Translations under genes and position numbers: made by a program | Shown: in pieces, positions 22,058-63,529 of the stretch | How positions within the stretch are numbered: position 1 is the first letter of the stretch | How the letters are laid out: the number at the start of each line of letters is the position of its first letter | DNA from: an uncultured Gammaproteobacteria bacterium | Lineage (GTDB): Bacteria; Patescibacteriota; Patescibacteriia; Magasanikbacterales; UBA922 | Assembly (NCBI GenBank): GCA_964597575.1 | Contig: CAZQXB010000001.1 | Span: 206,792 to 270,791, forward strand | DNA length: 64,000 nt | Direction of reading: 5' to 3' | The notes under the pieces: generated by a model | Seen by the model: only the letters and a program-made list of their open reading frames with translations | Told to the model about the DNA's origin: nothing | Database searches by the model: none

Positions 22058-22141
22058 GGGCAAGTGGCGGAACTGGCAGACGCACTAGCTTCAGGTGCTA
22101 GCGGCCGCAAGGTCATGAGGGTTCAAGTCCCTCCTTGCCCA
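22058..22141 (+). tRNA. tRNA-Leu (anticodon CAG) with a long variable arm.
   Basis: Acceptor stem GGGCAAG/CTTGCCC. Anticodon stem CTAGC/GCTAG with loop TTCAGGT. T-arm GGGTTCAAGTCCC. Discriminator A. CCA is not encoded. Confidence 0.85.
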
Positions 22142-33000: not shown

Positions 33001-34105
33001 CGTAAATATTAACACATCAAATTCCGTATCAGGGGCAATTGTAAGTCAAGACTCTTCATTCTCTGCTGCTCTCCGTATTTGTCGCATCGGTTCAACTATT
33101 AGAACCTACATCTCTCAGGATAATGAGCAAAGCTGGACACTCACAAACACTATTACCCGATCTGATTTTCCGACCACCCTTCAGGTGGGTATGATGGCTG
33201 TGGCTGCAAGCAGCGGAAATGATTTGCGCGCTGAATTTTCCTATATTCGAGCCGGCTCCCCGACATCTGTAACAGACTGTACCGGAACTTTAGGTACTGC
33301 TGTGGCTTCCTCTCCATCGCCTGCGCCTACACCTCCTCCACCGGCACCCCCACCTCCACCACCAGCCAACCCACCACCTCCACCCCCACCACCTCCATCA
33401 GGTCCAGCCGCAATTTCTGGGTTTAGTGATGAGTTTAATAGCAATAGTACGATTGGGAATTGGACAAGCCGTCAAGTAGCTGAGGGTAGTGCAAATCAGA
33501 TTGCAACCTGGAACATCAATTCAACGGTTTCGGGCAACATGGTACTCATACCGGCAACAAATAACATCGCTTGGTATAATGCGCTCGTGGGGCCATTTAT
33601 CTATAAAAATGTTACAGGAAACTTTGTCGTGTCTCTTCGGCTCAATGCGCATAGTTTGAGTAACTCCGCAGCAAGTCCCGGTCAGATATACAATGCCGGG
33701 GGGCTTTTAGTGAGAAATCCATCTTCGGCCGGAAGTGCTACACAAAATTGGATAGAAATGGCTATTGGAAATCACGAGACAGCAAACGGTTTGGTAACAG
33801 TAAACACGACAAATTCAGCTACGCCGAATCTTAGTCCCATCGCCGGAGCAACGAACACAAGTGTTCGCATATGTCGTATTGGTTCAACATTTACTTTGTA
33901 CACCTCAACAGATAACGATCAGACGTGGAATTTGAGCGCAACGTATAACCGGTTCGATCTTCCGACAACGCTTCAGGTGGGTATGGTTGTTGTGGCGGCA
34001 AATGCTTCTGGAAGTCCAGATGTGCAGGTTGATTTTGATTATATCCGAGGGGTTGTGCCAACCTCATCTTCCGACTGTACGGCAGTCATTGGAGTCCAAT
34101 CATAA
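30005..34105 (+). CDS. Giant secreted protein B (1366 aa), paralogue of A. It has a signal peptide, the shared N-terminal module (about 230 aa) and a (PV)n/Pro-rich linker, then four tandem ConA-like (DUF1349/GH43-C-like) beta-jellyroll repeats each ending in ...SDCT.
   Basis: The N-terminal region aligns by eye with protein A (CPLxxLxPYKTxxSSAVxYxSxDC ... LPWGPRRVxExGSLxKTVDDxRxF ... LVFKYP ... ADRIAT). The repeats begin (L/I)SxFxDEF and end (E/D)FxYIRxxxPxSxSDCT. Confidence 0.85.
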   Translation: MRGEFFEKVLVGCAIVVFGSVFAFGVNSTLRAQTASCPLQTLLPYKTPQSSAVYYVSKDCKKRPIRNPAVYFSHFSSWRDVRVTSQTVLNRIPDHELSFLPWGPRRVYENGSLVKTVDDSRVFIILDGIRLYPIESEFAFRSVLGYSFDQVEDVTRNVIDRYIVQSTPIESLETIPPFLVFKYPNDAKVYALERDGEDLAKRYVSSFAQIRQNNFRADRIATIPTTRTFVDSVGSAPPARPLPQPAPVPTPTPVPPPSPLVQIVPVPVPVPVPVPVPTPVPGVVPPVVPPPATPPPVVPPPATPTPTPVPITPNPPPPAPTPSPSSALSADPSLSDEFNSASTLGNWTMMNNDLLSSVNIGTTVAGRLTMVSAPIDQNGWYSDRQGAYMYKTVSGNFVVEMSGRVGRNSDMNSVPSGTFKEAGIIVRNPSGPVRQSGSLTTAVAPAGQQNWVMYNIGKQIFQYGRQAKSTRSGSPDTLSTLYYTDTPSGVRNGRIRVCRVGTTIYFYHMMENESTWVEEAFESTTGVDGNGRNLATPGISGNAVGTPIRFVRSDFPTTLQVGLIAGNWDSPYDGRSEFDYVRIAPVSTQSDCTRDMPAAGTTTPPPPPPAPTSLPAISGFGDEFADAATLSQWSNRQTVEGGASQISTWNINTTAAGAMVLTPSANVGWFNSLVGPFIYKQISGDFVVTTQVLARSVASANQAPSQVSNAAGLLVRNPASASGIQNWVTNNVGTHNGAVVGTTNLSTVNSLTNSVTATAGQFSVALRICRIGSTIRTYISQDNEQSWTLTNTITRSDFPTTLQVGMMAVAASSVADIRAEFAYIRSAVPSSVSDCTETIDPAISTGGTTPTPPPPPPAPPTTPPPPPPASVSAISGFGDEFADAGTLSQWSNRQTVEGSVSQLTTWDINNSASGAMALTPSQGNIPWYNSSVGPFIYKQISGDFVVSTQVLARSLNSPSQGPTQQYNAAGLLVRTPASAAGVQNWVTNNVGNVNGVIGVVNINTSNSVSGAIVSQDSSFSAALRICRIGSTIRTYISQDNEQSWTLTNTITRSDFPTTLQVGMMAVAASSGNDLRAEFSYIRAGSPTSVTDCTGTLGTAVASSPSPAPTPPPPAPPPPPPANPPPPPPPPPSGPAAISGFSDEFNSNSTIGNWTSRQVAEGSANQIATWNINSTVSGNMVLIPATNNIAWYNALVGPFIYKNVTGNFVVSLRLNAHSLSNSAASPGQIYNAGGLLVRNPSSAGSATQNWIEMAIGNHETANGLVTVNTTNSATPNLSPIAGATNTSVRICRIGSTFTLYTSTDNDQTWNLSATYNRFDLPTTLQVGMVVVAANASGSPDVQVDFDYIRGVVPTSSSDCTAVIGVQS
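32299..32440. repeat. First copy of a perfect 142-bp direct repeat inside protein B (repeat units 2 and 3 of the jellyroll array).
   Basis: ctccgtatttgtcgcatcggttcaactattagaacctacatctctcagg...atgatggctgtggctgcaag is identical to 33071-33212. Confidence 0.8.
33071..33212. repeat. Second copy of the perfect 142-bp direct repeat inside protein B.
   Basis: Identical to 32299-32440. The flanks are about 85% identical. Confidence 0.8.
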
Positions 34106-35434: not shown

Positions 35435-35518
35435 GAGGGTTTATGCACATACCTGTTAGGGGTATGTGTGCTATACTATATAAGCATTAGCTTCTTGATT
35501 TTTTTAGTAGATTTTTCT

Positions 35519-38500
35519 ATGGTTTTATTTCGGAAACCTTTTTTGCATATTTCATGGAGTCGTGTTGCGGCTCTGATATTTTTTCTTTCTATAGCGGGGG
35601 TTCTTTTTTTTGCACGCACTCTCCCTGCACTTGTTGCTGTAAATACATGGCCATTTGATACTGCTGGGGATTATACATACAATACTTCCCTTGTCGATGT
35701 AACCGGTGGAGTTGCTACACTTGTAGCAATAACCGGGGGTACCACGACCACAAATCATAATGATAACGGAAGCACAGAATTTGGTGGGGGGACTTCAACA
35801 AGCATCCAGTGGGTGAGTGCCTCAAGTTCACTCCGGATATCGTCGGGAGTAAGTGGTACTTTTACTTCGGTTGTTATTGATGCCGGAGTAACAACCACCT
35901 GGCAAACATTGGCGTGGACACCTTTTGCCCCTTACGGAAAAGAACTTGTTACAAGTACTGCGGAAACTCAGTATAGTTTTGGTAACTTTACAAATACCGG
36001 CGCGATAGCAGCATACTGGCGTTTGAATGAATCGAGTTGGAATGGTACGACAAACGAAGTTCAAAACGCTGTTTCAACGACCTTGCATGGCTCGCGTCGT
36101 GGGGGTGCGACGACAAGCGGTACGGCCCAATTTGGGCGTTCCGGGTCCTTTCCTTTAGCAAATACGTCGTATGTTCATGTAACAACTACAAACTTTTTGG
36201 CAGATTCTCAGTCGGGTACGATTATGGCGTGGATTTTTCCAACAAGTACCGGTGGGGGAACATTCCGTCATTTTTTTGCCTCAACTGATGAGTCGACATC
36301 CGATGGTAACGGCAATCGCGTTGTTTTGGGAATGCTTGATTCTGCAAATCAGTTATTATTCTACCATGCAGATGGTTCTGGTTTTGATTCAAATATCGGA
36401 AATACGGTGATGGCAGCAAATGAGTGGCATCATGTTGCTATTACTAATAGCGGGGCAGCAAACGGCTATCGTATGTATGTTGATGGGGTTCTGCAAACAC
36501 TAACTACTTTCGGTGGGGGAAATTCCGGTGATTGGTTTGCTGATGCAAATGGTTCTGGGGCCACAAATAGAGATAACATCACAATTGGTGGTATACGTCA
36601 TATTACACCTGACCTTTTGTTTGATGGTCTTGTTGATGAGTTGGTGATATTTTCACAAGAATTATCCACCTCAACGATTCGTGACCTTTACCGCCGTGGA
36701 GCACAGCGCTTGAGTTTTCAGGTTCGTTCCTGTGATGATAGTGCATGCAGCGGGGAAACGTTTACAGGCCCAGATGGCACGGCTGCGAGTTACTATACAG
36801 AATCTACCACCACAACGGTTGGCCTACCGTCGAAGAGTTTAATCACTCTCCCAGCTAATCGATATTTTCAGTATCAGACACTATTTAACACAACTTCAAC
36901 CGAACTTTCTCCTGGACTTCTTAGTGTTACAACTACAGGTTTTGCCACAACAACCTACTCCACAACAAGTCCAACGATTATAAATAATACGGGTTTCAGT
37001 TTTAGAAATATTTCTGCGTTTACACATTCACTCGGCGCTGGGAATGCTGGTACGGTGGAGTATCAGGTAGCTGTTGGGAACACCTCTACATTCTATTACT
37101 GGAATGGGAGCAATTGGGTTACAGCAAGCGCCGGATATCCAACGCACACCAATACGGTTTCAGAAGTAAATTCAAACATTATTCAGCTTGATACTGATGT
37201 CGGTGTTGGCACCTTCTACTTTCGCGCCTTTCTCGCTTCGAACGGAGCGCAGCAGGTTCAGCTTTCAGAGGTTGCGATCATGACAACGTCAACCATTTCT
37301 TTCGCGGCAAGCAGTGGTTCAGCAAGTGAAGGAAGTGGTACGAGTACGATTGTTGTTCAGCTTGATGAAGTTTCTTCGAGTACGATGACGGTTAATTATG
37401 CGGTTACCGGAGGAACAGCAACTGCGACAAGTGATTATGTTCTTGCAAGTGGTACTTCTACTATTGCGGCTGGAAGCACAACAACAAGTATTAGTATTCA
37501 GCTTGTCGATGACTCTGTTATCGACGGGAGTGAGACTGTCATCCTCACACTTACAAATGCGATCGGAGGGCTTCTTGGGTCAACCACAACATTTACCTTA
37601 ACCATTACCGATAATGATACTGCAGGGGTGACACTCAATCCTTCTTCTGTTTCTGTAACAGAAGGTGGTTCGGATACTTCGTATACTATTGTTTTGAATA
37701 CTCAGCCATCGAGTACTGTAAGTATTACACTTGCCACCTCAACAGGCGATATTTCTTTGTCGACTACCTCAATTACATTTACTACAAGTACTTGGAATTC
37801 TGCGCAGACGATTACGGTTACTCCTGTAAATGATAGTGATGTTGAGGGTACACACTCTGATACTATCACCCATACCGCAAGTTCAACCGATTCGAATTAT
37901 CATGCCATTTCGATTTCTAATATGTCGGTGAGTGTTACTGATGATGATGCATCATCTTCTTCTGGAGGCGGAGGCGGAGGCGGAGGTGGTGGTTCATTTA
38001 TTCCTACGACACCAGCACCTCAGGGCTTTGGCGGAACTGGTAATGGGGAAATTCGAGCAGGGGAGGGAGCGGCGACAAACCTCCCTGTTTCCGAAGGTTC
38101 CTTCATTGATGCTACTAATCGAGCGGTAACAATATCGTTTGCTGTGGAAGGTGCGACTCGCATGGCGCTTTCAAACCAACCTGATTTTGCGCTGGCTACT
38201 CAAGAGCCGTATCGTCCGAGCGTCATTTGGGACGTGTGTGGGAATTCGACCGTATGTCCTGAGGGTATTTATACTCTGTATGCACGATTTTATAACAGCT
38301 ACGGAGTTTCTGGAAATGTTATTTCCCGCCAAATTCGATATCGACCAACTTCAAGCTCGGTTACCCTATCACCTAGCTTAGTTCGACTTTTGAAGTCTGC
38401 TGATGACCCTAAAGTGTTCGAGGTTATTAATGGTGAAAAGCGCTGGCTTGTAAACGAACAGGCGTTTCTTTCGCGAGGGTATTCATGGGGGGCGATTGAG

Positions 38501-38836
38501 GTGGTTCCCTCAAGTGTTCTTCGGGCGTTGCCAGATGCGGGCCAAATTTCAACTCCTGCATTATTACCACCTACAAATAGGTCAATTTCACCCGCGTTCC
38601 GTTTCTCTTCATATCTTTCGTTTGGCTCGCAGGGAGCGGCCGTTCGAAGCTTGCAGGTTCTTCTTGTGGATTTAGGGTACTTCCCTAGAACCGTTCAGCC
38701 AAATGGTGTATTTGGTCCAACTACCCGTGGGGCCGTACAGGCGTTTCAGCGTGCTAACGGTCTTACTCCAATTGGTGTTGTTGGTCCGCAGACTCGCGCG
38801 CTCCTCAACGGAATTTTAAGTGCAAGAGGGGAATAG
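35519..38836 (+). CDS. Giant cell-envelope protein C with an N-terminal TM anchor and a LamG-like (ConA-like) jellyroll domain. Calx-beta domains, a poly-Gly linker, a domain of unknown fold and a C-terminal peptidoglycan-binding (PG_binding_1-like) domain follow.
   Basis: LamG_3 signature ...WHHVAITNSGAANGYRMYVDGVLQ...DELVIFSQELS. Calx-beta signatures (TISFAASSGSASEGSGTSTIVVQLDEVSSSTMTVNYAVTGGTATATSDYVLASGT...; ITDNDTAGV...). G(n) run. C-terminal ...GAAVRSLQVLLVDLGYFP...GVFGPTTRGAVQAFQRANGLTPIGVVGPQTRALL. Confidence 0.8.
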   Translation: MVLFRKPFLHISWSRVAALIFFLSIAGVLFFARTLPALVAVNTWPFDTAGDYTYNTSLVDVTGGVATLVAITGGTTTTNHNDNGSTEFGGGTSTSIQWVSASSSLRISSGVSGTFTSVVIDAGVTTTWQTLAWTPFAPYGKELVTSTAETQYSFGNFTNTGAIAAYWRLNESSWNGTTNEVQNAVSTTLHGSRRGGATTSGTAQFGRSGSFPLANTSYVHVTTTNFLADSQSGTIMAWIFPTSTGGGTFRHFFASTDESTSDGNGNRVVLGMLDSANQLLFYHADGSGFDSNIGNTVMAANEWHHVAITNSGAANGYRMYVDGVLQTLTTFGGGNSGDWFADANGSGATNRDNITIGGIRHITPDLLFDGLVDELVIFSQELSTSTIRDLYRRGAQRLSFQVRSCDDSACSGETFTGPDGTAASYYTESTTTTVGLPSKSLITLPANRYFQYQTLFNTTSTELSPGLLSVTTTGFATTTYSTTSPTIINNTGFSFRNISAFTHSLGAGNAGTVEYQVAVGNTSTFYYWNGSNWVTASAGYPTHTNTVSEVNSNIIQLDTDVGVGTFYFRAFLASNGAQQVQLSEVAIMTTSTISFAASSGSASEGSGTSTIVVQLDEVSSSTMTVNYAVTGGTATATSDYVLASGTSTIAAGSTTTSISIQLVDDSVIDGSETVILTLTNAIGGLLGSTTTFTLTITDNDTAGVTLNPSSVSVTEGGSDTSYTIVLNTQPSSTVSITLATSTGDISLSTTSITFTTSTWNSAQTITVTPVNDSDVEGTHSDTITHTASSTDSNYHAISISNMSVSVTDDDASSSSGGGGGGGGGGSFIPTTPAPQGFGGTGNGEIRAGEGAATNLPVSEGSFIDATNRAVTISFAVEGATRMALSNQPDFALATQEPYRPSVIWDVCGNSTVCPEGIYTLYARFYNSYGVSGNVISRQIRYRPTSSSVTLSPSLVRLLKSADDPKVFEVINGEKRWLVNEQAFLSRGYSWGAIEVVPSSVLRALPDAGQISTPALLPPTNRSISPAFRFSSYLSFGSQGAAVRSLQVLLVDLGYFPRTVQPNGVFGPTTRGAVQAFQRANGLTPIGVVGPQTRALLNGILSARGE

Positions 38837-43867: not shown

Positions 43868-44082
43868 TAACGCACCCTCCTAAAGACGCGTTTCGCGTCT
43901 TTACCCGCACCTGCCCGAATTGGCCGGTGAAGGTAGAAAACGCCAAACCCTAACTCGAGAGTATAGAAGATTATTCTTTTTTTGTCAATAGAGCCAAATA
44001 TACCGCTTTGTGTATTAAAAAAGTGCTGAATAAAGCAAAAAACTTGCCTTTTATCGCTCTTTTTTATACAATAATAAATACT

Positions 44083-47000
44083 ATGAAAGAATTGTCAAAA
44101 GCCTTTGAGGCAAAACAGTACGAAGACTCTATCTATAAGCGCTGGGAAGAAAGCGGGTTTTTTAACCCTGATGTTTGTGTAGAAAAGGGGGTTACTGACG
44201 CTCGTGCTGAGGCGTTTACGGTTATTCTTCCGCCTCCAAATGTTACCGGAACTCTTCATATGGGTCACGCGTCCATGCTTGCCATTGAAGATCTTATGGT
44301 TCGGTACCACCGTATGAAAGGAGAGAAGACTCTTTGGCTTCCAGGAACCGATCATGCCGCCATTGCAACACAATCAAAGGTAGAAAAAATGATTAAAGAA
44401 AAAGAAGGAAAATCGCGCTACGATTTAGGCCGCGACCCTTTTCTGGCCCGAGTTCACCAGTTTGCGAAGGAATCCCATGATACGATTGTGAATCAGTGTA
44501 AAAAAATGGGCTCTTCGCTTGATTGGTCACGAGAAGCGTTCACGCTCGATGAGCCACGGAATCGGGCGGTACGAACCATGTTTAAAAAGATGTACGATGA
44601 TGGTCTGATTTATCGTGGGTCTCGTATTGTGAACTGGGATCCAAAAGGACAAACGACCATTTCAGACGATGAGCTTGTGTATGTTGAAGAAAAAACAACG
44701 TTTTATTATTTCAAATATGGGCCGTTTGTTATTGGAACTGCCCGTCCTGAAACAAAATTCGGCGATAAGTATGTGGTAATGCATCCAGACGATGAACGGT
44801 ATGCTGCGTATAAGCATGGTGATACCATTTCGGTCGAATGGATTAATGGGCCGATTACCGCCACAATTATTAAGGATACTGCCATTGATATGGCATTTGG
44901 AACAGGTGTCATGACGATTACCCCCTGGCACAGCGTGGTCGATTTTGAGATTGCTGAGCGCCACGGGCTCGAGAAAGAACAGATTATTGATGAGGCGGGG
45001 AAGCTTCTGCCGATTGCGGGAGAGTTTTCTGGTCTCCCCATATCAAAGGCGCGTGCCGGTATTGTGGAAAAATTGCGCACTAAGGGCCTTCTTGTAAGAG
45101 AAGAAGACTATGCTCACCAGGTAGCTACGGCTGAACGCACCGGTGCTTTGGTTGAACCACAAATTAAATTGCAGTGGTTTGTGAATGTAAATAAAGAATT
45201 TGAGCGCGATGGAAAAAAGACGACGCTTAAATCTCTTATGCAGGAGGCAGTAAAGAGTAAAAATATAGAAATTCTGCCCGATCGTTTTGAAAAGATCTAT
45301 TTTAGTTGGATTAATAATTTGCGTGACTGGTGTATTAGTCGCCAAATTTGGTACGGCCATCAAATTCCTGTGTGGTATCGCGGAAGCGAAATATATTGTG
45401 GCATCACTCCGCCTGCAGGAGAGGGGTGGGTGCAGGATTCAGATAGCCTCGACACCTGGTTTTCTTCAGGGCTCTGGACGTTCTCTACTTTAGGTTGGCC
45501 AGAAACGACGATTCATTTCGTGCGCCATGGGGAAGCAGAAAATAACGCTGCGAATATTGTTGACGACGGCACTGGTCCACGATCTTTTCCTCTTACAAAA
45601 AAGGGGCGAGAGCAGGTGAAAAAAACCGCCAAAGCGCTTGCGAAACAATCGATCGGTGTTATTATTTCTTCTCCCGTTCCCCGCGCTAAAGAAACCGCGG
45701 AAATTATTGCTTCAGAAGTTGGCGTGGAAATTATGTATGACGAAGCTCTCCGAGAAATTGGAATGGGCGATCTTCTCTACACTTCTCAAGATGAATTTCA
45801 TGCCAAACGTGGAGATTTTGATCGCTGGCACCACGATTCACCACACGGTGTCGAATCCTACGATGCACTTAAAGCACGTACTGCGGCATGTTTAGAAAAA
45901 ATTCTCGAAACGTACCGAGGTAAAACCGTTGTCATTGTGTCGCACGGAGACCCTATTGCTACCATGAAAAAACTCGGCACAAAATTACCTGATGGTGTGT
46001 ACGATTTGCCAGACACCGGTTCCGCCACGACCTGCACGTTTAATAATGCAAATACCCAGTCGACCGACTTCTCGGTATTTCACCCAACCTCAGTACTCGA
46101 GACCGGATATGACATCATCTTTTTTTGGGTGGCCCGCATGATTCTCATGGCAACATATGCGTTAGATCAAATTCCGTTTCGTACGGTGTACCTCCATGGA
46201 CTTGTGCGTGATGCTGAAGGGAAAAAAATGAGCAAATCCCTTGGAAATATTATTGACCCGCTCGACATGATCGAGAAGTATGGAACCGACGCTACACGTT
46301 TGTCGCTTCTTGTGGGGAATACTCCTGGAAACGACCTAAAACTTTCCGAAGAAAAAATTGCTGGATTTAGAAATTTTACCAATAAAATCTGGAACATTTC
46401 TCGCTTCATGCTTTTGAACATCGAAACGCCGCAGGCAGCAGTTACATGTCCAGAGCCAGAAACAGCGACCGATGCTTGGATTCTCTCTGAACTTTCAGCT
46501 ACGATTGAAGCGTACAGCGGACACCTTGATCAATTTGAGTACTCACAAGCAGGGGAGTTGCTTCGTGCGTTTACGTATGATACGCTGGCTGATTGGTATC
46601 TTGAACTTGCAAAACTTGAAGGGAGAAAAGATGTGTTACTCAATTATATTTTGAACACCCTCCTTACGCTGTGGCATCCGTTTATGCCATTTGTGACAGA
46701 AACAATCTGGCAAGAAATGTACGGCAAGGATGCGTTTCTTATGGTGCAGCGTTGGCCGGAGATAAAAAAAGTGAAGAAGTCAAAAAAAGAAAATCCGGTC
46801 ATGTCCGTACAAAAGGTGGTTTTAGCACTCCGTCAGTTAAAATCCGATTATCGTATTTCAAAAGCAGAAGAGGCCAGTATTGTGGCTGATAAAGGTGTGA
46901 AAAAAGAACTTGAATCGTTCCTTCCGCATATAGCGAAACTTGCCGGTGTAGTTACCATGACGTTTGCCTCAGAAATTCCAGATGGTGCCGTACATACGTT

Positions 47001-47244
47001 GGTACAGGGGGTGGGTAAAGTTACACTAACAGTAAAAGGACAGGTGGATACCGCAAAGGAAAAGATTCGTATTCAAAAAGAAATAGACTCAGTTGCGCCG
47101 TACCTCCAGGCCCTTAAAGGAAAACTTTCAAATGAAAGCTTTGTGTCGAAGGCACCGCCGCAAGTGATTGAGATTGAAAAGAAAAAACTTGCTGACGCGG
47201 AAGAAAAATTAATAAAACTTACGGAGCAACTCGCTTCACTATAA
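44083..47244 (+). CDS. valS: Valyl-tRNA synthetase carrying an in-frame insertion of about 190 aa: a histidine-phosphatase (phosphoglycerate-mutase superfamily) domain.
   Basis: HMGH (HIGH), KMSKS, tRNA-binding and the C-terminal coiled-coil are all present. Between the conserved ...WFSSGLWTFSTLGWPE and FHPTSVLETGYDIIFFWVARM blocks (normally about 7 aa apart) lies HFVRHGEAENN...SSPVPRAKETAEII...VVIVSHGDPI. The start was set at MKELSKAFEAKQYE. Confidence 0.9.
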   Translation: MKELSKAFEAKQYEDSIYKRWEESGFFNPDVCVEKGVTDARAEAFTVILPPPNVTGTLHMGHASMLAIEDLMVRYHRMKGEKTLWLPGTDHAAIATQSKVEKMIKEKEGKSRYDLGRDPFLARVHQFAKESHDTIVNQCKKMGSSLDWSREAFTLDEPRNRAVRTMFKKMYDDGLIYRGSRIVNWDPKGQTTISDDELVYVEEKTTFYYFKYGPFVIGTARPETKFGDKYVVMHPDDERYAAYKHGDTISVEWINGPITATIIKDTAIDMAFGTGVMTITPWHSVVDFEIAERHGLEKEQIIDEAGKLLPIAGEFSGLPISKARAGIVEKLRTKGLLVREEDYAHQVATAERTGALVEPQIKLQWFVNVNKEFERDGKKTTLKSLMQEAVKSKNIEILPDRFEKIYFSWINNLRDWCISRQIWYGHQIPVWYRGSEIYCGITPPAGEGWVQDSDSLDTWFSSGLWTFSTLGWPETTIHFVRHGEAENNAANIVDDGTGPRSFPLTKKGREQVKKTAKALAKQSIGVIISSPVPRAKETAEIIASEVGVEIMYDEALREIGMGDLLYTSQDEFHAKRGDFDRWHHDSPHGVESYDALKARTAACLEKILETYRGKTVVIVSHGDPIATMKKLGTKLPDGVYDLPDTGSATTCTFNNANTQSTDFSVFHPTSVLETGYDIIFFWVARMILMATYALDQIPFRTVYLHGLVRDAEGKKMSKSLGNIIDPLDMIEKYGTDATRLSLLVGNTPGNDLKLSEEKIAGFRNFTNKIWNISRFMLLNIETPQAAVTCPEPETATDAWILSELSATIEAYSGHLDQFEYSQAGELLRAFTYDTLADWYLELAKLEGRKDVLLNYILNTLLTLWHPFMPFVTETIWQEMYGKDAFLMVQRWPEIKKVKKSKKENPVMSVQKVVLALRQLKSDYRISKAEEASIVADKGVKKELESFLPHIAKLAGVVTMTFASEIPDGAVHTLVQGVGKVTLTVKGQVDTAKEKIRIQKEIDSVAPYLQALKGKLSNESFVSKAPPQVIEIEKKKLADAEEKLIKLTEQLASL
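45504..46077 (+). other. Histidine-phosphatase-superfamily domain inserted into ValS (RHG...R...SHG catalytic signature).
   Basis: RHGE(A)ENN, LTKKGREQ, ISSPVPRAKETA and VSHG motifs in the order expected for PF00300-type phosphatases. Confidence 0.75.
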
Positions 47245-55485: not shown

Positions 55486-55569
55486 GCTCAGGTGGCGTAA
55501 TTGGTAGCCGCACTACCTTGAGGTGGTAGCGCTCGCAAGGGCATGGAGGTTCGAGTCCTCTCCTGAGCA
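55486..55569 (+). tRNA. tRNA-Leu (anticodon GAG) with a long variable arm.
   Basis: Acceptor GCTCAGG/CCTGAGC. Anticodon stem CTACC/GGTAG with loop TTGAGGT. T-loop GTTCGAGTC. Discriminator A. Confidence 0.8.
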
Positions 55570-55893: not shown

Positions 55894-55997
55894 AGCTTAT
55901 TCGGTTAGATGAATACTTTTTTAGTATACTCCTTTGTAAAAAGAAAAAGTAGAGAAGGTTTTTCAACAACAAACATCTCCTTTAGGGAGATGTTTGT

Positions 55998-56431
55998 GGT
56001 TTTTCTTCGATAAGCCGAATTCTGTTTTTGCTCTTACGAGCAAATGACGATCATTTCTCTGAGTTTCGATGTTACCATCGAAATCAAACGAGCGAACTTT
56101 TCCAAGCCTTCGCGACGGGCCTGCACCACCATTGTGTTGCGGGTTCGTCGCGAAGACAAGGCTGCTCTTTCTCCAGGTAGGGTTTACCACTCCGATACCT
56201 TGCGGGTCGGAGAGTCTGGTGGCCGTAAAGCCCCAGACACTTTTCACCTTTCTCTCCTCATATAAATATGAGGGGGTAGTATTGTCTCTGTGGCACTTTC
56301 CCGCTTCTCTCTTTTGCAAGAGAGAAGGGTGGGTGTTACCCACTGCCTTTGTCGGTAACCCTTGCGGGCTAACGGGAGTTCGGACTTTCCTCTCTAGCGT
56401 GACTGATAGAGCGATCATCTGAAGATAAAAC
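55998..56431 (-). ncRNA. rnpB: RNase P RNA (bacterial type A-like).
   Basis: The minus strand contains GAGGAAAGTCCGAACTCC (P4 5' strand, consensus GGAAAGUCCGGGCUCC) and AACAGAATTCGGCTTATCG (P4 3' strand, consensus ACAGAAcCCGGCUUA). A terminator hairpin (CAAACATCTCC-ctaa-GGAGATGTTTG) lies at the 3' end and a perfect TTGACA-17-TATAAT promoter at the 5' end. The overlapping ORFs are spurious. Confidence 0.75.
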
Positions 56432-56527: not shown

Positions 56528-57937
56528 ATGAAACGACTTGAACTTCTTCTTCTTATCATTCGTATTCCACTTGATATCCTCATGCTCCTTATGGCAGGAG
56601 TAGCAGCATATCTTGCTCGACATAGTGAGGCGATTACAGTGCTTCGTCCCGTCGTGTTTAGTCTGAGTAAAGAGGAATATCTCACCCGTCTTTTTCCTGT
56701 TATTCTTGTGACGGTTTTGCTTTTTGCGACACTCGGGTTGTATCGACCACGTCCAAGCAGGCTCATGGCCGATATCGGCCATATCGTTGCTGGACTTTCC
56801 ATGAGTTTAAGCGGAGTGGCGCTCGTACTTCTTTTTACGCAGAGTGTTTTTGATTCTCGGTTTTTGGTTGCGGCCACCTTCGGATTCGCCCTTATCACAG
56901 TAAGTTTTGGACGTTTGGTTTTGCATATCGTTCGGCTTTTTTTGTATCGGAATGGGTACGGAGTACGGCGGGTCATTCTTGTTGGGGAGGGTACCAGGGC
57001 CGATGCTCTTTCGAAACTCTTAACAGAGCGCTCTAGCTTGGGGTATCGCATTGTCGCCCACATCCCATTTTGGGTGCAACAGGAATTTTCTCACCCCTCA
57101 CCATTTGATCAGATCCTTTTTGTGGAGGGAACGGTCGCACGCGAAGGCGCACTTCAGGCAATGGAGTATGCGGCGAAGCACCACGTTATTTTTTCCTATG
57201 TCGCTGATATCTTCGATACCTTCAATTTAAACATGAGTATCCACCCGATTGGTGGTTTGCCTGTGGTTGAGCTTCGTTCCACGCCTCTTGAGGGTTGGGG
57301 AAGAGTAGTGAAACGGATTATTGATATAGCGGTGAGCGTGTTTTTCTTGATTATCTTTTCACCATTTTTTCTTCTTTTTTCTGCTTTGGTTTTTTTTGAA
57401 ACTGGTCGTCCGGTTATTTATAAGAACGAACGCATCGGGCTTCGGGCAAAGCACTTTTTCATTCTGAAGTTTCGTTCCATGTACCAGAAAGATTCGACTG
57501 GTCCGCAGTTTGGCGCAGCAGGGGAAGCAGCCCTTCTTCGTGAGGCCGACCTTATTCAGAAGAAAAATACTAAGACTGGGCCTATTTATAAAATAGGAGA
57601 TGATCCACGTGTAACCCCCATAGGTCGATTTCTTCGACGGTTTAGCTTCGATGAGCTCCCACAATTTTTCAATGTTCTCAAAGGGGAGATGAGTTTGGTT
57701 GGTCCTCGACCTCACCAACCTCGAGAAGTGGCGCAGTACGGCGATTCGTATCCTCATATTTTTGCCATTAAGCCCGGTATTACAGGTCTCGCTCAAATTT
57801 CAGGTCGAAGTGATTTGTCGTTTGAAGAAGAGATGCGGCTTGATACATATTATGTCGAGCGGTGGAGTATTTGGCTCGATTTTTTGGTCATGCTTAAAAC
57901 CCCCTTTGTCATTCTCCGTCGTCGTCGCGCTCTGTAA
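56528..57937 (+). CDS. Polyprenyl-phosphate sugar phosphotransferase (WbaP/bacterial sugar transferase family).
   Basis: N-terminal multi-TM domain. The C-terminal Bac_transf domain has KRIIDIAVS...[20 protein letters not shown] and SLVGPRPH motifs. The start was set at MKRLELL. Confidence 0.85.
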
Positions 57938-57944
57938 GTTTCTT

Positions 57945-59048
57945 ATGAAGATTGCTCTAGTCCACGACTATTTGGCCCAGGACGGGGGAGCAGAACGAGT
58001 GCTCGGCGTCCTTCATCGGCTGTATCCAGAAGCTCCTATTTTTGTTTTATTTCATAAGAAAGGTTCTGTTGCTGGTTTAGAGAAGGCAATAATTCGTGAG
58101 TCATTTTTAGCGAAGCTCCCCTTTGGTCGACGATTATATCAGTGGTACTTACCCCTCATGCCGCTTGCAACTGAACATCATAATTTGCGCGGGTTTGATG
58201 TGGTTATCTCTTCTGCCTCAGGGCTAGCTAAGGGAGTTCTCACGCGCCCTGAAACACTCCATATTTCCTATTGCCACACTCCAACACGCTATCTTTGGAC
58301 AGACACGCATGAATACGTGGCCGATTTAAAGCAAAATAAGCTCGTAAAGGTGTTTTTACCAGGATTGATCCATCGTTTGCGTTTATGGGATCGTCTCAGT
58401 GTTGATCGGGTCGATCGTATTGTGGCCAATTCCGAAACGGTGAAGCGGCGTATTGCGAAGTACTACCGACGTTCAAGTGAAGTGTTGTATCCGCCGGTTG
58501 ATGTAGAAAATTTTACTCCTGCAAAAACAATCGGTAATTATTTTGTGGCTGGGGGGCGCCTCGTTCCGTATAAACGAATTGATATTGTTGTTCAGGTGTT
58601 TAACCGTCTTCAGCTCCCACTGTTTATTTTCGGTGTCGGCCCAGAACTTGCTCGGCTAAAGGCTATGGCCCGAAAGAACATCACTTTTTTAGGAAGAGTA
58701 AGTGATGCCGAAAAGGCAAAAATACTTGCTGAAGCGAAAGCATATATTCATCCGCAAATTGAAGATTTTGGTATTACCGCTGTCGAATCGATGGCGGCGG
58801 GGCGACCAGTGATTGCGTATCATGGCGGCGGGGCGAAAGAAACAGTCGTGCCCGGAAAAACCGGCATTTTTTTTGAAGAACAAACTTGGGAATCTCTTCT
58901 TCATGCCGTGATTCATTTTGATCACACCATATGGAACCAAGAGGTACTTACCACTCATGCCACCTCTTTTTCTGAAGAGCGTTTTCAAAAAGCTTTTCAC
59001 GCTCTGGTCGCAAAAGAGTACCAGGCGCATCTTACGGAACAAGGTTGA
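57945..59048 (+). CDS. Glycosyltransferase family 4 (GT-B, retaining).
   Basis: MKIALVHDYLAQDGGAERV N-terminus and a C-terminal E..xxxxxxE-type region (VESMAAGRPVIAYHGGGAKE). The start was set at MKIAL, 8 nt after the WbaP stop. Confidence 0.8.
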   Translation: MKIALVHDYLAQDGGAERVLGVLHRLYPEAPIFVLFHKKGSVAGLEKAIIRESFLAKLPFGRRLYQWYLPLMPLATEHHNLRGFDVVISSASGLAKGVLTRPETLHISYCHTPTRYLWTDTHEYVADLKQNKLVKVFLPGLIHRLRLWDRLSVDRVDRIVANSETVKRRIAKYYRRSSEVLYPPVDVENFTPAKTIGNYFVAGGRLVPYKRIDIVVQVFNRLQLPLFIFGVGPELARLKAMARKNITFLGRVSDAEKAKILAEAKAYIHPQIEDFGITAVESMAAGRPVIAYHGGGAKETVVPGKTGIFFEEQTWESLLHAVIHFDHTIWNQEVLTTHATSFSEERFQKAFHALVAKEYQAHLTEQG

Positions 59049-62000
59049 TGTTGGGAAGAGTACTTGCAGAAGCATCTTCACCACTTGATTCTCCGCGCGA
59101 GAGGGTGATATTTTTGGTGATTGCACCTGCTTCAATGGAGGTAGGAAGGTTGAGAGGTATGCTTACTGAGAGGTAGCCTCGTTTTTCGACGATGAGGCGA
59201 TAGCTGCCACCCCCGACCAAAAAGACGTATTCGCCTTTTTCATTTGTGATTTTTGTGTCTACTAATTTTTTCAGAGATTCATTGTAGAGGCGGACCACTG
59301 CGCCGGCAACTGCCTCGTGGGTGTGTGCGTCGATAATAGCCCCAGAACGTTTTGGTGTTTTTACCTTCGCATATCGGTAGAAGAGAATGCCGAGTCCAAC
59401 GTGAACCAAGACAAAACCAAATGTCTTGAGGTTCGGGGTTACGGTAAATGAGACGCCGGTGGCTACTGCACCTGCCATGGCCATACCCTGTTGAAGTGCG
59501 CGAAGCGGTTGGTTAAAGTTAAACCGACTGCGAATCACCTTGTGGGACCCCGCACGATCAAGAGCAATGCTTTTTGCAATTGGTTCTCCGTCAGCTGTTG
59601 TTACGATCGGGGTGCCGTAGTAGAGGTCGGTATGCCGACCATCTGCTTCGCGGCCATCAAGCAAAGAAGAGGGGAATACAAAACCGTCTTTTACCACCTC
59701 AAGACGGTAAGTGCCGGCTTTTGGTGTAAACAAATAGCGACCATGCATATCCGTAACACGCGTTTGGATTACTTTCCCGTTACCCTCATCAATTAATCGA
59801 ACAATGGCCAGGTCAACCGGAAGTTTTTTGTCGGTATCGTAGACCTCTCCCCAAACTTCTTTTTTGCGAAGTCCTAAAAACATGAGTGGTTGGAGGAAGA
59901 GGAAGCGGAGAAGCGGAGTAATAATAGTCCATAGTGACGAGGTGACTGCAATGGTCGAGATTGTTGTTGCAACCGGAGCGGTTACCCGTGCGACCTGGCG
60001 CACCTCTTCAGTTTCTCGAACTTCCGTTACCACACTCACGATTTCACTGTATGTTTCTTCAGCTCGAAATACGACCGCTTCAGCGATGTTTTGAGGAATT
60101 CTTTGAGGTCGTGCTTCTTGAGGCTGTGGGGATTGAGATGGTGGTGGGGTAGGAGCAGGGGGTGGCGTGGATTCTAAACCAAGAGGAAGCTCTGGAAGAG
60201 GGGTTTCCTCCTCAGGCTCTGTGGTTTCTCCTGGAACTTCCGGAGTGGATGGAGGAGGGGTTGGTGCTATTCCGCCTGCTGGTGGAGGAGGGGTTGGATT
60301 TGTGGAGCCACCGCCAGTTGATCCGCCCCCTGAAGGGGTTGGTGTTGGGGCGGGTGCTGGTGGGGTTGCGCCTGGGCCAGGAGAAGGAGGTGGAGGATTT
60401 GGCGTGGTTGGTGTTGGGGTAGGTGTCGGAGGTGGTGGGTTAGGTGTTACCGGATTTGGGGTCGGATTCGGTGTTGGTGGTGGAGGATTTGGCGTGGTTG
60501 GTGTTGGGGTAGGTGTCGGAGGTGGTGGGTTAGGTGTTGGCGGTGGAGGGGCAGCGCTATCAATGTATTCAATGGTGTCAGAAGCATCTGACTGGCCTCC
60601 AACATTGGTGCGGAAGCGTGCGAACACAGTTTTCATGCCAAAACCAGGCGTAAGAACCCACGGCATGTTGTTTACATATGGTTCGTATGAGGCATCTGCC
60701 AAATCTGGAAGATTTGAAACTGCGATTTGGTCTGCGCTTGGAACATCAAACGTGAGTGTTACGTTTCGAGAAGGTGTGGTGGGGTCTCCATCATTAATGG
60801 TAATTGCCGGACCGTTGGAGTTTGCACCGCCACCTCCCCCCCCGGATGGACTTGGGTTAATAGGAGGAGGGGGTGTTGGGGTAAAGCCACCAACGGAAAG
60901 GGTAGAAAATGGTCCACCAGAAATGCTTGCTTCTTGGTTGTTCACATCACGTGCTACGATGGTAAAGGAGTAGGATTGGCCATTGTTTAATCCTGTAAAA
61001 CGGAATGAAGTAGCTCCGGTCCACCCCGACGTTCGACTTGGGTCGTCGGTATCATATACCTGGTATTGAGTGGTTTGATCGTTGCCATTTGTACCCCAAC
61101 TTACGGTCATTTCAGTTGGTGTGATATTTGACACGCCGGCATCGCTTACGGGGTTTGGAAGAGTGTAAAAGGCAGTGGGTGTTCCTGAAGCGTAATTACC
61201 ATATTCGTCGTACGCCCAAATATTAACCGTATATACTGAAGAGCGTGCAAGACCGCTAAGAACGATTCCTGTTGCTCCGCCGTAGGTGCTTGTGGCCAGT
61301 GCGCTTTCTGTGGAAGAGGTGACTCGTGAATCTGTTGTGGTTGGAGGTGTGAGGTCTGGGCGGTAAAAAATACGATAATCAGAAAAATTTGCATCAGAAG
61401 AGGGTGTGCCAAAAACGAGCCGTGCACTTGTTTGAGATCGTTCAGCTACCGTCAGGTCCCCCGGGGTAGTTGGGTCTGTAAGATCAATCATACCAAACCA
61501 TCCGTCTACACGGCCGCGATCAATCGCATACTGGCCAGATGCATCAATAAGTGTTGGGTGGATATTTCTATTTTGTATCACTTGCAAGAATCGAATGTCC
61601 CGAGTTCCTATGGGGTTAATAGATGCCTGAACAACATCATGCGCGCTTGCAGCACTGCTGTTGAGCGATGAGCGAATAGAAAGAAGCGCTGTTGATGATG
61701 TACCTTGAAGGGTAAGGGCTCCGTTGATCGTAGTTGTTACTCCGGCTGGAAAGAAGAATTCTTGACTATTGGTGGCTATTTTTGTTATTCCGCCGAACGT
61801 AAGGTCGTGGGACGAGAGAATTGCCTGACTTCCATTTCGGGTCAATAAAAGAGTGGTCGATGCAGCGTCGACGGTACCGATAATGCTCGTCGTCCGATAG
61901 TCAAAAACGATTGGAATGGGAGGGAGGCGAATAATACTACCCGTATTTACACTAAGAACGGTTAATGTAGAGGCTGCCGAGTATTGTCGGAGGGTAAGGC

Positions 62001-63357
62001 TTCGGGCCTGTGAAAAATCAATCAAACTTCCGGTTGTTCCGGAAAGCCGAACAAAAACTCCGACTTGGATATCTCCGGAACCAAAAGTAAGCTGGGCTCC
62101 ATTCGTAGCTTCAACAGCTTCGGTTTGGACATTTCCTGGACCCCCGTTAAAAAATGCAACAGCACTTTGCCCACTAATAGCATTAGTGACACGAAGATTC
62201 GCATCATTTTGATTAAATGTTCCCGCAAATATACCCATTGTGTTAATGGTAGTCGTACCTGTGCCATTAAAGTTTGCAACAGTACCTGTGGAAAACAGGT
62301 CGATACGAGAAAGGTTCGCATCGGGTGGAAATTCAAGAACTCGAGCAGGTCCAAAGACACGGATGATACTCTGACCTCCTCCCCAGGTAGAATCGTGAAT
62401 AACGGGTCCGTGGGCATCGAGAAAGATGTAGGTTGATAGTCCTGATCCTGGTGGAAGATATGCGCGTAATACGCCTCGGGCGAAGTGGGCTGTACCACTA
62501 ACGACGATGCGAGCGGCGCTATCGCTCAGATCCTCGTACTGGATACCGTCTGAGGAGAGGGTGCGGTTCACCGTAAGATTATTTAAATAAAGAACGCTCG
62601 CCGAGCTTGTCGCAAAGTTGATGAACGAGTCCCCAGTACCGTCAAAGAGGATTGTTCCGTCGTTGTGGGCAAATGTTCCCCCGGTCGGTCGAAAGTGGGT
62701 GGAAAAACTTGTGGTAGCGCTTGAGGCTCGAAATGTACCAGCAGTTTGAGTAAAAACATCATTAATATCAATAATGTCGCTGTTGCCTAAAAAAGTGCCC
62801 GCATCCATAGTAAATGGGCCGTTAACCGTTAAACTTCTACTTTGGGTGATTGTTCCGCTATATGTAGCCTCAATCGTTACTCCGGCCACTGTTCCTTGGA
62901 AAGCAGGATCAATCGTTGCGTTTGTGACGCTGGTGTCGTTAAAAAGAACAACATCGGTGCTGCCTGGTACCGTGTCGGTGCTCCAGTTTGTAGCCGTGCT
63001 CCATAGTCCGTCACCACTTGAATTATCCCAGGTTATGGTAATGGCCTGCACTCCGCTCGCGAAGTAAAAATATATCGCGATAAAAGCCATCGTGGGCATG
63101 GCAACCGAAACAGTAACTCGTTTTCGGAGTCGGTAAAGGGAATACGCGCATCCTGTTTGGTTAAAAAAAGAAGGTGGGGTTTTCGCTGTATCGTAAAAAA
63201 AATAGAGTGGCAGCGCAATGATTGCGAGACACAACTCTAAAACAAGAATTGAAATTGTTTTTCCAATACCTCGGAAAGGGGAGGTAGAAACAAATTCTTG
63301 TTTTTGACGATGAATTTCTTCAGAAAGATTCGCGAGAATCTCAAACCACGCGTTCAT
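59032..63357 (-). CDS. Giant cell-surface protein D (1441 aa) with N-terminal TM segments, autotransporter-like beta-helix repeats (PATR-type) and two FN3-like domains. A poly-Gly run, a PT-rich linker and two transthyretin/CarboxypepD_reg-like domains placed between C-terminal TM helices complete the protein.
   Basis: ITWDNSSGDGLWSTATNWSTDTVPGSTDVVLFND (PATR-like). FN3-like blocks (YRIFYRP...VYTVNIWAYDEYGN; YQVYDT...SYSFTIVARD). (PPPPTPNPT)n. GEVYDTDKKLPVDLAIVRL...GRYLF and AGAVVRLYNE...GEYVF beta-sandwich signatures flanked by hydrophobic helices. Confidence 0.8.
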   Translation of the reverse strand: MNAWFEILANLSEEIHRQKQEFVSTSPFRGIGKTISILVLELCLAIIALPLYFFYDTAKTPPSFFNQTGCAYSLYRLRKRVTVSVAMPTMAFIAIYFYFASGVQAITITWDNSSGDGLWSTATNWSTDTVPGSTDVVLFNDTSVTNATIDPAFQGTVAGVTIEATYSGTITQSRSLTVNGPFTMDAGTFLGNSDIIDINDVFTQTAGTFRASSATTSFSTHFRPTGGTFAHNDGTILFDGTGDSFINFATSSASVLYLNNLTVNRTLSSDGIQYEDLSDSAARIVVSGTAHFARGVLRAYLPPGSGLSTYIFLDAHGPVIHDSTWGGGQSIIRVFGPARVLEFPPDANLSRIDLFSTGTVANFNGTGTTTINTMGIFAGTFNQNDANLRVTNAISGQSAVAFFNGGPGNVQTEAVEATNGAQLTFGSGDIQVGVFVRLSGTTGSLIDFSQARSLTLRQYSAASTLTVLSVNTGSIIRLPPIPIVFDYRTTSIIGTVDAASTTLLLTRNGSQAILSSHDLTFGGITKIATNSQEFFFPAGVTTTINGALTLQGTSSTALLSIRSSLNSSAASAHDVVQASINPIGTRDIRFLQVIQNRNIHPTLIDASGQYAIDRGRVDGWFGMIDLTDPTTPGDLTVAERSQTSARLVFGTPSSDANFSDYRIFYRPDLTPPTTTDSRVTSSTESALATSTYGGATGIVLSGLARSSVYTVNIWAYDEYGNYASGTPTAFYTLPNPVSDAGVSNITPTEMTVSWGTNGNDQTTQYQVYDTDDPSRTSGWTGATSFRFTGLNNGQSYSFTIVARDVNNQEASISGGPFSTLSVGGFTPTPPPPINPSPSGGGGGGANSNGPAITINDGDPTTPSRNVTLTFDVPSADQIAVSNLPDLADASYEPYVNNMPWVLTPGFGMKTVFARFRTNVGGQSDASDTIEYIDSAAPPPPTPNPPPPTPTPTPTTPNPPPPTPNPTPNPVTPNPPPPTPTPTPTTPNPPPPSPGPGATPPAPAPTPTPSGGGSTGGGSTNPTPPPPAGGIAPTPPPSTPEVPGETTEPEEETPLPELPLGLESTPPPAPTPPPSQSPQPQEARPQRIPQNIAEAVVFRAEETYSEIVSVVTEVRETEEVRQVARVTAPVATTISTIAVTSSLWTIITPLLRFLFLQPLMFLGLRKKEVWGEVYDTDKKLPVDLAIVRLIDEGNGKVIQTRVTDMHGRYLFTPKAGTYRLEVVKDGFVFPSSLLDGREADGRHTDLYYGTPIVTTADGEPIAKSIALDRAGSHKVIRSRFNFNQPLRALQQGMAMAGAVATGVSFTVTPNLKTFGFVLVHVGLGILFYRYAKVKTPKRSGAIIDAHTHEAVAGAVVRLYNESLKKLVDTKITNEKGEYVFLVGGGSYRLIVEKRGYLSVSIPLNLPTSIEAGAITKNITLSRGESSGEDASASTLPNINLVP
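60391..60540. repeat. Tandem DNA repeat inside protein D: a unit of about 58 bp present twice with about 92-bp period, encoding the PPPPTPNPTP linker.
   Basis: ggaggatttggcgtggttggtgttggggtaggtgtcggaggtggtgggttaggtgtt occurs at 60391 and again at 60483. Confidence 0.75.
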
Positions 63358-63529
63358 AGAATGGTCAAAGCGTTGGGTGGATTTTATTCCAGTATAGCAT
63401 GGAGATTACTGATTGACAAAAGAGGTAAAATGAGTTATGCTTCTGCCCACTTAAGGTGGTCAACCAGCCTTAAGTTTTGTAAAGGTCGATTGTGTTGAAT
63501 GTACTTTTAAACAGAAACTTTGGCGTGAT

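Follow-up and report, generated by a model that had tools for sequence, protein, structure and literature searches.

A stretch of 64,000 nucleotides from contig CAZQXB010000001.1 (assembly GCA_964597575.1), referred to here as the window, carries the gene for a giant putative surface protein, protein D. Judged from sequence comparisons, the C-terminal anchor of this protein is no peculiarity of D; it is a widespread, uncharacterised cassette of Patescibacteria, and D is a member of the family with an unusual head. Taken as a whole, D is probably a large cell-surface adhesin of Candidatus Magasanikbacteria that binds a host or substrate and is built on a shared membrane chassis. Its domain architecture and family membership can be assigned with high confidence, while its role as an adhesin is predicted with moderate confidence.

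A considerable part of bacterial diversity is made up of Patescibacteria, which apparently live in attachment to other cells; how their surface proteins are retained and organised is poorly understood. D itself looks like an ordinary adhesin; its anchor is very common, strongly conserved and uncharacterised, and carries many exported heads, including pilin-like ones. If the cytoplasmic location proposed below for its beta-sandwiches is right, the cassette would represent an unusual use of the transthyretin-like fold and a candidate link between cell surface and interior. At the least, it could be used as a marker for listing the displayed surface proteins of a candidate phyla radiation (CPR) genome.

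The gene for D is a single open frame of 1441 codons plus a stop codon. A metagenome scan recovered two relatives, and orthologues were only ~52% identical; looking up the exact sequence of D among public assemblies gave no record. The orthologue at L077 (793-5118) has the same length as D and ~52% identity over residues 1-1440. Its flanks follow the gene order of the window, with a histidine kinase, a diacylglycerol (DAG)-kinase-like gene, a sugar transferase, a GT4 glycosyltransferase and then the convergent large gene D. Because an orthologue of the same length is found in conserved synteny, D is by all appearances a real, maintained gene and not a chance open reading frame (ORF). As for the host, the window's GyrB has a 100% identical counterpart on a 913,817-bp contig, and its named relatives at 75-79% identity are all Magasanikbacteria, with a few rows reading only 'Patescibacteria group bacterium' or 'bacterium'; this comparison assigns the window to the genome of a member of Candidatus Magasanikbacteria (Patescibacteria/CPR).

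The C-terminal cassette and its family

The C-terminal part of D runs in the order first transmembrane helix (TM1), basic cluster, sandwich 1, hairpin of two further helices (TM2/TM3), basic cluster, sandwich 2. The corresponding features are as follows (residue numbers are those of D).

59032..63357, reverse strand: whole gene D, a single ORF with a full-length syntenic orthologue (L077, 52% identity)
59869..59976, reverse strand: anchor TM1 region, residues 1128-1163, a conserved AP...hydrophobic...QP followed by a basic cluster (LRKKE); helical in the AlphaFold2 model, with P1128 and P1157 invariant and 83% identity to the orthologue
59554..59862, reverse strand: transthyretin-like/CarboxypepD_reg beta-sandwich 1, residues 1166-1268, supported by Pfam (SdrD_B, CarbopepD_reg_2, bMG3), by Foldseek and by a predicted local distance difference test score (pLDDT) >90
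59371..59496, reverse strand: TM2/TM3 helical hairpin, residues 1288-1329, from AlphaFold2 helices and family hydropathy; the loop between the helices is uncharged and the flanks are rich in K/R
59098..59349, reverse strand: transthyretin-like/CarboxypepD_reg beta-sandwich 2, residues 1337-1420, matching CarbopepD_reg_2 at 1338-1407, pLDDT ~90

A preliminary description of the sequence had proposed two CarboxypepD_reg/transthyretin-like sandwiches interleaved with three hydrophobic helices, and Pfam, AlphaFold2 and Foldseek agree in supporting this. Pfam matches to CarbopepD_reg_2 (PF13715, 36.5 bits against a cut-off of 32.2, in two stretches) and SdrD_B (PF17210, 33.3 bits against 29.7) place the sandwiches at about residues 1166-1265 and 1338-1410. 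An AlphaFold2 model of the C-terminal ~360 residues, built with 16 homologues, gives both sandwiches a pLDDT of ~90 or above and renders the three hydrophobic segments as helices (about residues 1117-1160, 1275-1306 and 1310-1330), not as buried strands. Foldseek searches with this model returned SdrD B domains, CnaB, the carboxypeptidase D transthyretin-like domain, SpaA and transthyretin/HIUase, with a target TM-score of 0.82 to 5aq0 in support of the sandwich fold. The arrangement as a whole has no counterpart among solved structures in either Foldseek or PDB profile searches; the PDB sequence-profile search with the module gave domain-level matches only (NOMO2, SdrD).

Conservation between D and its orthologue is uneven along the protein. 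Identity reaches 83% in TM1, 76% in sandwich 1 and in an N-terminal loop described below, 70% in sandwich 2 and 68% in the TM2/TM3 region, compared with 55-62% in the fibronectin type III (FN3) domains, 51% in the beta-helix and 35% in the linker. A conserved membrane-proximal chassis combined with a faster-evolving exposed part is the pattern that would be expected for a displayed surface protein.

The preliminary description had also proposed a search for homologues of the C-terminal anchor, which uncovered a large family. Throughout, P numbers denote homologous proteins and L numbers denote loci in genomes or metagenomes. A search with residues 1081-1441 found 16 proteins (E 2e-64 to 1e-32; 31-42% identity by local BLASTP, 29-38% in the alignment). 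Their alignment contains 23 invariant columns and the shared motifs AP, QP, RRKR-WGxVY, PxDLAxVRLI, VTDxxGRY and PKxPKxWG. When 1.84 billion representatives of 50%-identity clusters were searched exhaustively with HMMER, 11,775 matched at E<=1e-3 and 2,408 at E<=1e-30, so that the family is put at roughly a thousand clusters or more. Among the top 150, ~145 cover the whole 319-position profile and lie C-terminally in proteins of ~300-2200 residues, the few exceptions being long arrays of the sandwich domain. D scores 385 bits with a local family hidden Markov model (HMM), and its module is single-copy in the window.

A degenerate-pattern scan of 185,579 species genomes found 75 loci; most bear the labels Magasanik-, Uhr-, Parcu- or Patescibacteria. 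Many of the others come from third-party assemblies labelled 'uncultured Gammaproteobacteria' (e.g. L004, L008, L023, L044, L045, L052, L071 and L074), with isolated records assigned to Udaeobacter, Binatia or Burkholderiaceae. In most such oddly labelled records, the flanking genes are 45-85% identical to those of Patescibacteria-labelled loci, and for this reason their taxonomy is taken as unreliable. The cassette is apparently restricted to Patescibacteria wherever labels could be checked. No description of it in Patescibacteria was found in the searchable literature, and it is not a unit in Pfam or NCBIfam.

In essentially all of the 75 loci, the module is C-terminal to a head of 400-2300 residues. 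Pfam matches in the heads of 49 members include fn3 (26), Pur_ac_phosph_N (24), DUF4215 (8) and N_methyl (8). The beta-helix head of D occurs in none of the other loci (0/75), and only L051 shares its FN3 and third-domain part. A prepilin N-terminal methylation motif is carried by nine of the 16 module homologues; no match to it (PF07963, G-F-T-L-x-E) was found in D. Several proteins of ~520-580 residues join a type IV prepilin N-terminus, a pilin-like globular head and the cassette (P0003, P0005-P0008, P0011, P0012 and P0015), a combination also present at loci L014, L021, L029, L031, L034, L046, L052 and L066. With C-terminal membrane helices as a tether, a pilin could not be drawn out into a filament in the normal manner. 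The one genomic context examined (L001) showed no pilus operon, and the neighbours of P0011, a homologue with a pilin head, are housekeeping genes.

The module gene belongs, in some 32-34 of the 75 loci, to a conserved cluster of genes on one strand; D lies outside such a cluster. The order (L002-L076, e.g. L002:2017-3111, L067:238-1356, L016:7072-13053 and L009:203-2524) is a ~365-residue protein with an N-terminal hydrophobic segment, a ~370-residue protein with a signal peptide, a C-terminal transmembrane helix and a basic tail (median gap 18 nt), the module gene and, a median of 108 nt downstream, a giant LVIVD-repeat protein. Fifteen loci also have a protein that combines several transmembrane helices with TPRs, and neither of the two conserved upstream partners has a Pfam match. 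Some long members, at L057, L058, L065, L067 and L075 (Uhrbacteria-, Parcubacteria- or otherwise labelled) extend beyond sandwich 2 in Pro/Ala-rich disordered tails with a recurring motif, KVPWE[LVM]Q.L, that could dock a partner.

Membrane topology of the cassette

The orientation of the cassette was approached through charge statistics, taken by column over 73 family members. The 20 residues leading up to the first hydrophobic block have a net acidic character, and the 10 residues after it contain 4.7 K/R on average. Ahead of TM2, 20 residues carry 4.75 K/R against 1.66 D/E, the TM2-TM3 loop is essentially uncharged, and the 20 residues after TM3 carry 3.9 K/R. Most family heads begin with a classical signal peptide; given their signal peptides or pilin-like N-termini and their domains of extracellular type, the heads must lie outside the cell. 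Because the heads are exported and the charges follow a positive-inside pattern, both sandwiches are placed in the cytoplasm. The probable topology would therefore be head out, TM1 crossing from out to in, sandwich 1 in, a TM2/TM3 hairpin, and sandwich 2 in.

Several points weigh against this arrangement. The cytoplasmic placement depends on the positive-inside rule and on the exported heads, and domains of the transthyretin-like, CnaB and SdrD-B kinds are as a rule found outside the cytoplasm. At ~34 residues, the first hydrophobic block is long and could be taken for more than one segment. In addition, AlphaFold2 confidence is 50-65 for the helices, and the predicted template modelling score (pTM) of the module is 0.37.

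These points lead to the main structural rival, in which both transthyretin-like domains are extracytoplasmic and rest flat against the outer face of the membrane, forming a pedestal between passes in the manner of CnaB/SdrD-B stalks. Such folds are nearly always extracellular, as in SdrD, SpaA, CnaB and carboxypeptidase D (Foldseek) and NOMO (PDB profile), and block 1, with a variable A/S/T-rich insertion in some members, could hold two passes. However, this would put the strongest K/R clusters (RRKR after TM1 and R..PKxPK after TM3) outside and the acidic stretch before TM1 inside, and two passes in block 1 would force heads that bear signal peptides or resemble pilins into the cytoplasm. 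Member L040, in which sandwich 2 is followed by a transmembrane helix, a further domain, another transmembrane helix and a K-rich end, also fits an in-out-in course and thus sandwiches on the inside. The pedestal is a rather doubtful alternative on balance.

The motif, hydrophobic stretch and basic cluster at TM1 (AP...hydrophobic...RRKR) could in principle be a sorting signal like LPXTG or PEP-CTERM, with the head transferred to the wall and the module left behind. The arrangement is similar to that of known C-terminal sorting signals, and the Pro of AP is invariant. Against this, a regular-expression search of the sequence ahead of TM1 found none of the LPXTG, PEP or PGF-type motifs, no dedicated sortase-like gene came to light next to D, and ~280 well-conserved residues follow the basic cluster. 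To our knowledge, no known sorting signal has ~280 conserved residues after its basic cluster, and this explanation is very improbable.

With the sandwiches in the cytoplasm and TM1 as a stop-transfer anchor, both domains would end up on the inner face near the membrane, where they could keep the protein in position, bring about its oligomerisation or connect it to a partner inside the cell. Extended to the family, this gives a tentative idea that has perhaps one chance among several: the cassette as more than a passive anchor, a hitherto unrecognised, Patescibacteria-wide transmembrane coupling module, in which cytoplasmic sandwiches link diverse external heads (adhesins, membrane-tethered pilin-like proteins) to an internal partner. 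Its purpose could be localisation, oligomerisation or signalling during host-cell attachment.

The exported part of protein D

The ectodomain (residues ~106-1125) begins with a beta-helix head, which is followed by a pair of FN3 domains, a third domain and finally a Pro/Thr stalk of ~145 residues. It is preceded by a conserved N-terminal extension that the preliminary description had missed, with two hydrophobic segments around a basic loop.

63193..63255, reverse strand: hydrophobic segment A, residues 35-55, Kyte-Doolittle peak 2.46, 57% identical in the orthologue
63118..63192, reverse strand: basic loop, residues 56-80 (...PSFFNQxGCAYSLYRLRKR), predicted cytoplasmic; it contains five K/R and a single D and is 76% identical in the orthologue, compared with ~50% for the head
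63043..63117, reverse strand: hydrophobic segment B, residues 81-105, from hydropathy a signal-peptide-like export/anchor segment ending ...SGVQA
61489..63042, reverse strand: right-handed beta-helix head, residues 106-623, with an N-cap W..G..W....NW motif and a C-cap ...DxGxxxGWF
61174..61467, reverse strand: FN3 domain 1, residues 631-728, PF00041, 28.5 bits against a 25-bit cut-off
60943..61155, reverse strand: FN3 domain 2, residues 735-805, PF00041, 37.7 bits against a 25-bit cut-off
60553..60810, reverse strand: third domain, residues 850-935, ITINDGDPTTPSRNVTLTF..., 35% identity to residues 844-946 of the window ORF 35468-38836
60118..60552, reverse strand: Pro/Thr-rich linker or stalk, residues 936-1080; of these 145 residues, 66 are Pro and 27 are Thr; the alignment with the orthologue has 35% identity and 41 gaps
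60389-60448, no strand assigned: first copy of a perfect 60-bp direct repeat, from a search for the longest exact repeat
60479-60538, no strand assigned: second copy of the repeat, from the exact repeat search, 90 bp from the first and in frame

The head had been described as beta-helical, and this is borne out by AlphaFold2, which, from a shallow alignment, models an all-beta solenoid (pTM 0.65) with the character of a right-handed parallel beta-helix. The pLDDT is ~90 or more over the first ~120 residues (block means 88-95), and the last ~60 residues are uncertain. The motif previously picked out by eye is present as W110..G..W119....N124-W125....P131...D135.V137.F139.D141 and is conserved in the few head homologues. 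A search of 5.8 billion proteins yielded only six of these: one, with the label Candidatus Omnitrophota, is described as 'beta strand repeat-containing', and the rest are unnamed metagenome proteins. The head has no Pfam or NCBIfam match (for Pfam even at E<=5 with residues 104-623 scanned alone), a PDB sequence-profile search with it found nothing, and the window holds no second copy. D's head is acidic and charge-poor, with 37 K/R and 67 D/E in 832 residues, compared with ~15% K/R in the sandwiches, a difference that agrees with the topology proposed above.

The preliminary description had likened this region to PATR-type passengers, which would make D a type V autotransporter-like protein with its barrel lost or replaced. 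That framing can be given practically no credence. Neither PATR (PF12951) nor Pertactin or Autotransporter families match in Pfam, at E<=1 for the whole protein or E<=5 for residues 104-623. In the AlphaFold2 model, the C-terminus consists of three helices and two sandwiches of ~100 residues instead of a beta-barrel, and no head homologue shows a barrel. Furthermore, the host belongs to Magasanikbacteria, and Patescibacteria are generally described as lacking an outer membrane. Membership of the autotransporter/PATR group was accordingly rejected, as the defining translocator is absent and no passenger family is matched by sequence. The fold had also been regarded as unusual for a monoderm; beta-helix adhesins occur in monoderms too, so it is not anomalous.

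The claimed FN3-like modules proved to be two PF00041 domains, each above the Pfam gathering threshold of 25 bits when scanned separately. The domain that follows them has no Pfam match and is termed immunoglobulin (Ig)-like from its size and position, with the fold assumed.

For the Pro/Thr-rich linker, the preliminary description had claimed a tandem repeat of ~58 bp at 60391-60540. A DNA duplication within the linker is indeed present, and the unit differs: two perfect 60-bp copies start 90 bp (30 codons) apart, in frame, giving ~1.67 copies of a 90-bp period rather than a head-to-tail 58-bp array. Each copy encodes TPNPPPPTPTPTPTTPNPPP with identical codons. This repeat is a recent in-frame duplication, because an exact 60-mer duplicate cannot arise by chance. 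Tandem Repeats Finder detected only degenerate 21/42/48-bp periodicity in the linker. The orthologue has a linker of similar length that is unalignable and does not contain the repeat. To judge from this comparison, a linker that cannot be aligned between ~52% identical orthologues shows fast evolution, not population-level copy-number variation. The length of the stalk may change by slipped or unequal recombination.

At the N-terminus, segment B lies where homologue P0017 has its classical signal peptide, immediately ahead of the W-D-G-G...NW motif. An alternative start giving a plain signal peptide was considered; the candidates are M1, L42, M87, M90 and V103, and no alternative start among them has a basic n-region. 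M87 and M90 are absent in the orthologue, in which the extension is conserved. Since no alternative start yields a plain signal peptide and M87 and M90 are not conserved, the extension is regarded as real.

Combining these elements, the N-terminal hydrophobic segments would export the ectodomain through the membrane, and the beta-helix would attach to a ligand that a host cell or substrate presents. The FN3 domains, third domain and Pro/Thr stalk would hold the head off the membrane, across the wall or S-layer. Two considerations count against this picture. The adhesin role is argued from fold neighbours and architecture only. In addition, two hydrophobic segments around a basic loop allow more than one N-terminal topology, and segment B may or may not be cleaved; if it is uncleaved, the ectodomain would be tethered at both ends. 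In the main functional rival, the head would act enzymatically, as a polysaccharide lyase or depolymerase exposed on the surface to degrade the host wall or capsule, rather than as a passive adhesin; this is considered unlikely, and adhesion is the preferred role for D.

Surroundings of the gene and comparison with known systems

The 3' end of D overlaps that of the convergent GT4 gene by 17 bp (59032-59048). The listed start of the GT4 ORF (57699) overlaps the sugar-transferase gene (57699-57937), and the true start is probably downstream, near MKIALVHDYL. With a sugar transferase and a GT4 gene as syntenic neighbours, glycosylation of the Pro/Thr stalk is possible, although this is speculation only. 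Upstream of D, a consensus scan gave one promoter-like site, and the number of such sites in the region does not exceed the shuffled expectation.

63391..63419, reverse strand: promoter-like TTGTCA-17-TATACT with TG, ~34 nt upstream of the ATG (weak evidence)

Three other very large, probable surface proteins are encoded on the forward strand of the window (9880-14961, 30005-34105 and 35468-38836). Two have DUF1349 (LamG-like) domains, and one has Laminin_G_3, Calx-beta and a C-terminal PG_binding_1 and shares a domain of ~85 residues with D. These proteins use anchoring solutions different from that of D within the same genome. No second copy of the anchor module was found elsewhere in the window, where only D's third domain has a match, in ORF 35468-38836. 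Elsewhere in the window, a valyl-tRNA synthetase ORF (44008-47244, forward strand, 1078 residues) contains a His_Phos_1 domain at residues 502-656, an unusual insertion between the matches to the catalytic core and the anticodon-binding domain. A bacterial class A RNase P RNA lies at 55995-56430 on the reverse strand (146 bits), where mechanically called ORFs are not genes, and tRNAs lie at 22058-22141 and 55486-55569.

One comparison is with the unnamed Patescibacteria cassette family itself (P0003, P0011 and P0015, annotated 'prepilin-type N-terminal cleavage/methylation domain-containing protein' or 'hypothetical'), which shares the same cassette motifs. The heads differ, D being among very few members with a beta-helix, and D has an N-terminal hairpin where others have a plain signal peptide. 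The beta-helices of type V autotransporters and two-partner secretion systems (Vag8, Pet, IgA1 protease, VacA p55, pertactin and EtpA) are 9-14% identical to D, which lacks a translocator. Beta-helix proteins of monoderms and phages, such as the tapirins of Caldicellulosiruptor, the serine-rich repeat protein (SRRP) of L. reuteri and gp15 of phage Andhra, are anchored by pilus association, LPXTG or the virion, unlike D, and the PDB profile search detected no sequence relation of D's head to them.

In overall design, D resembles Gram-positive adhesins of the type of microbial surface components recognising adhesive matrix molecules (MSCRAMM), such as SdrD and Cna, which likewise combine an exported head, Ig/FN3-type spacers, a low-complexity wall-spanning stalk and a hydrophobic segment with a basic cluster, and in which the same sandwich fold is present. 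However, D has no LPXTG, and its anchor is a three-helix integral membrane module. Whereas the sandwiches of MSCRAMM proteins lie in the stalk, those of D come after TM1 and between membrane helices and are predicted to be cytoplasmic.

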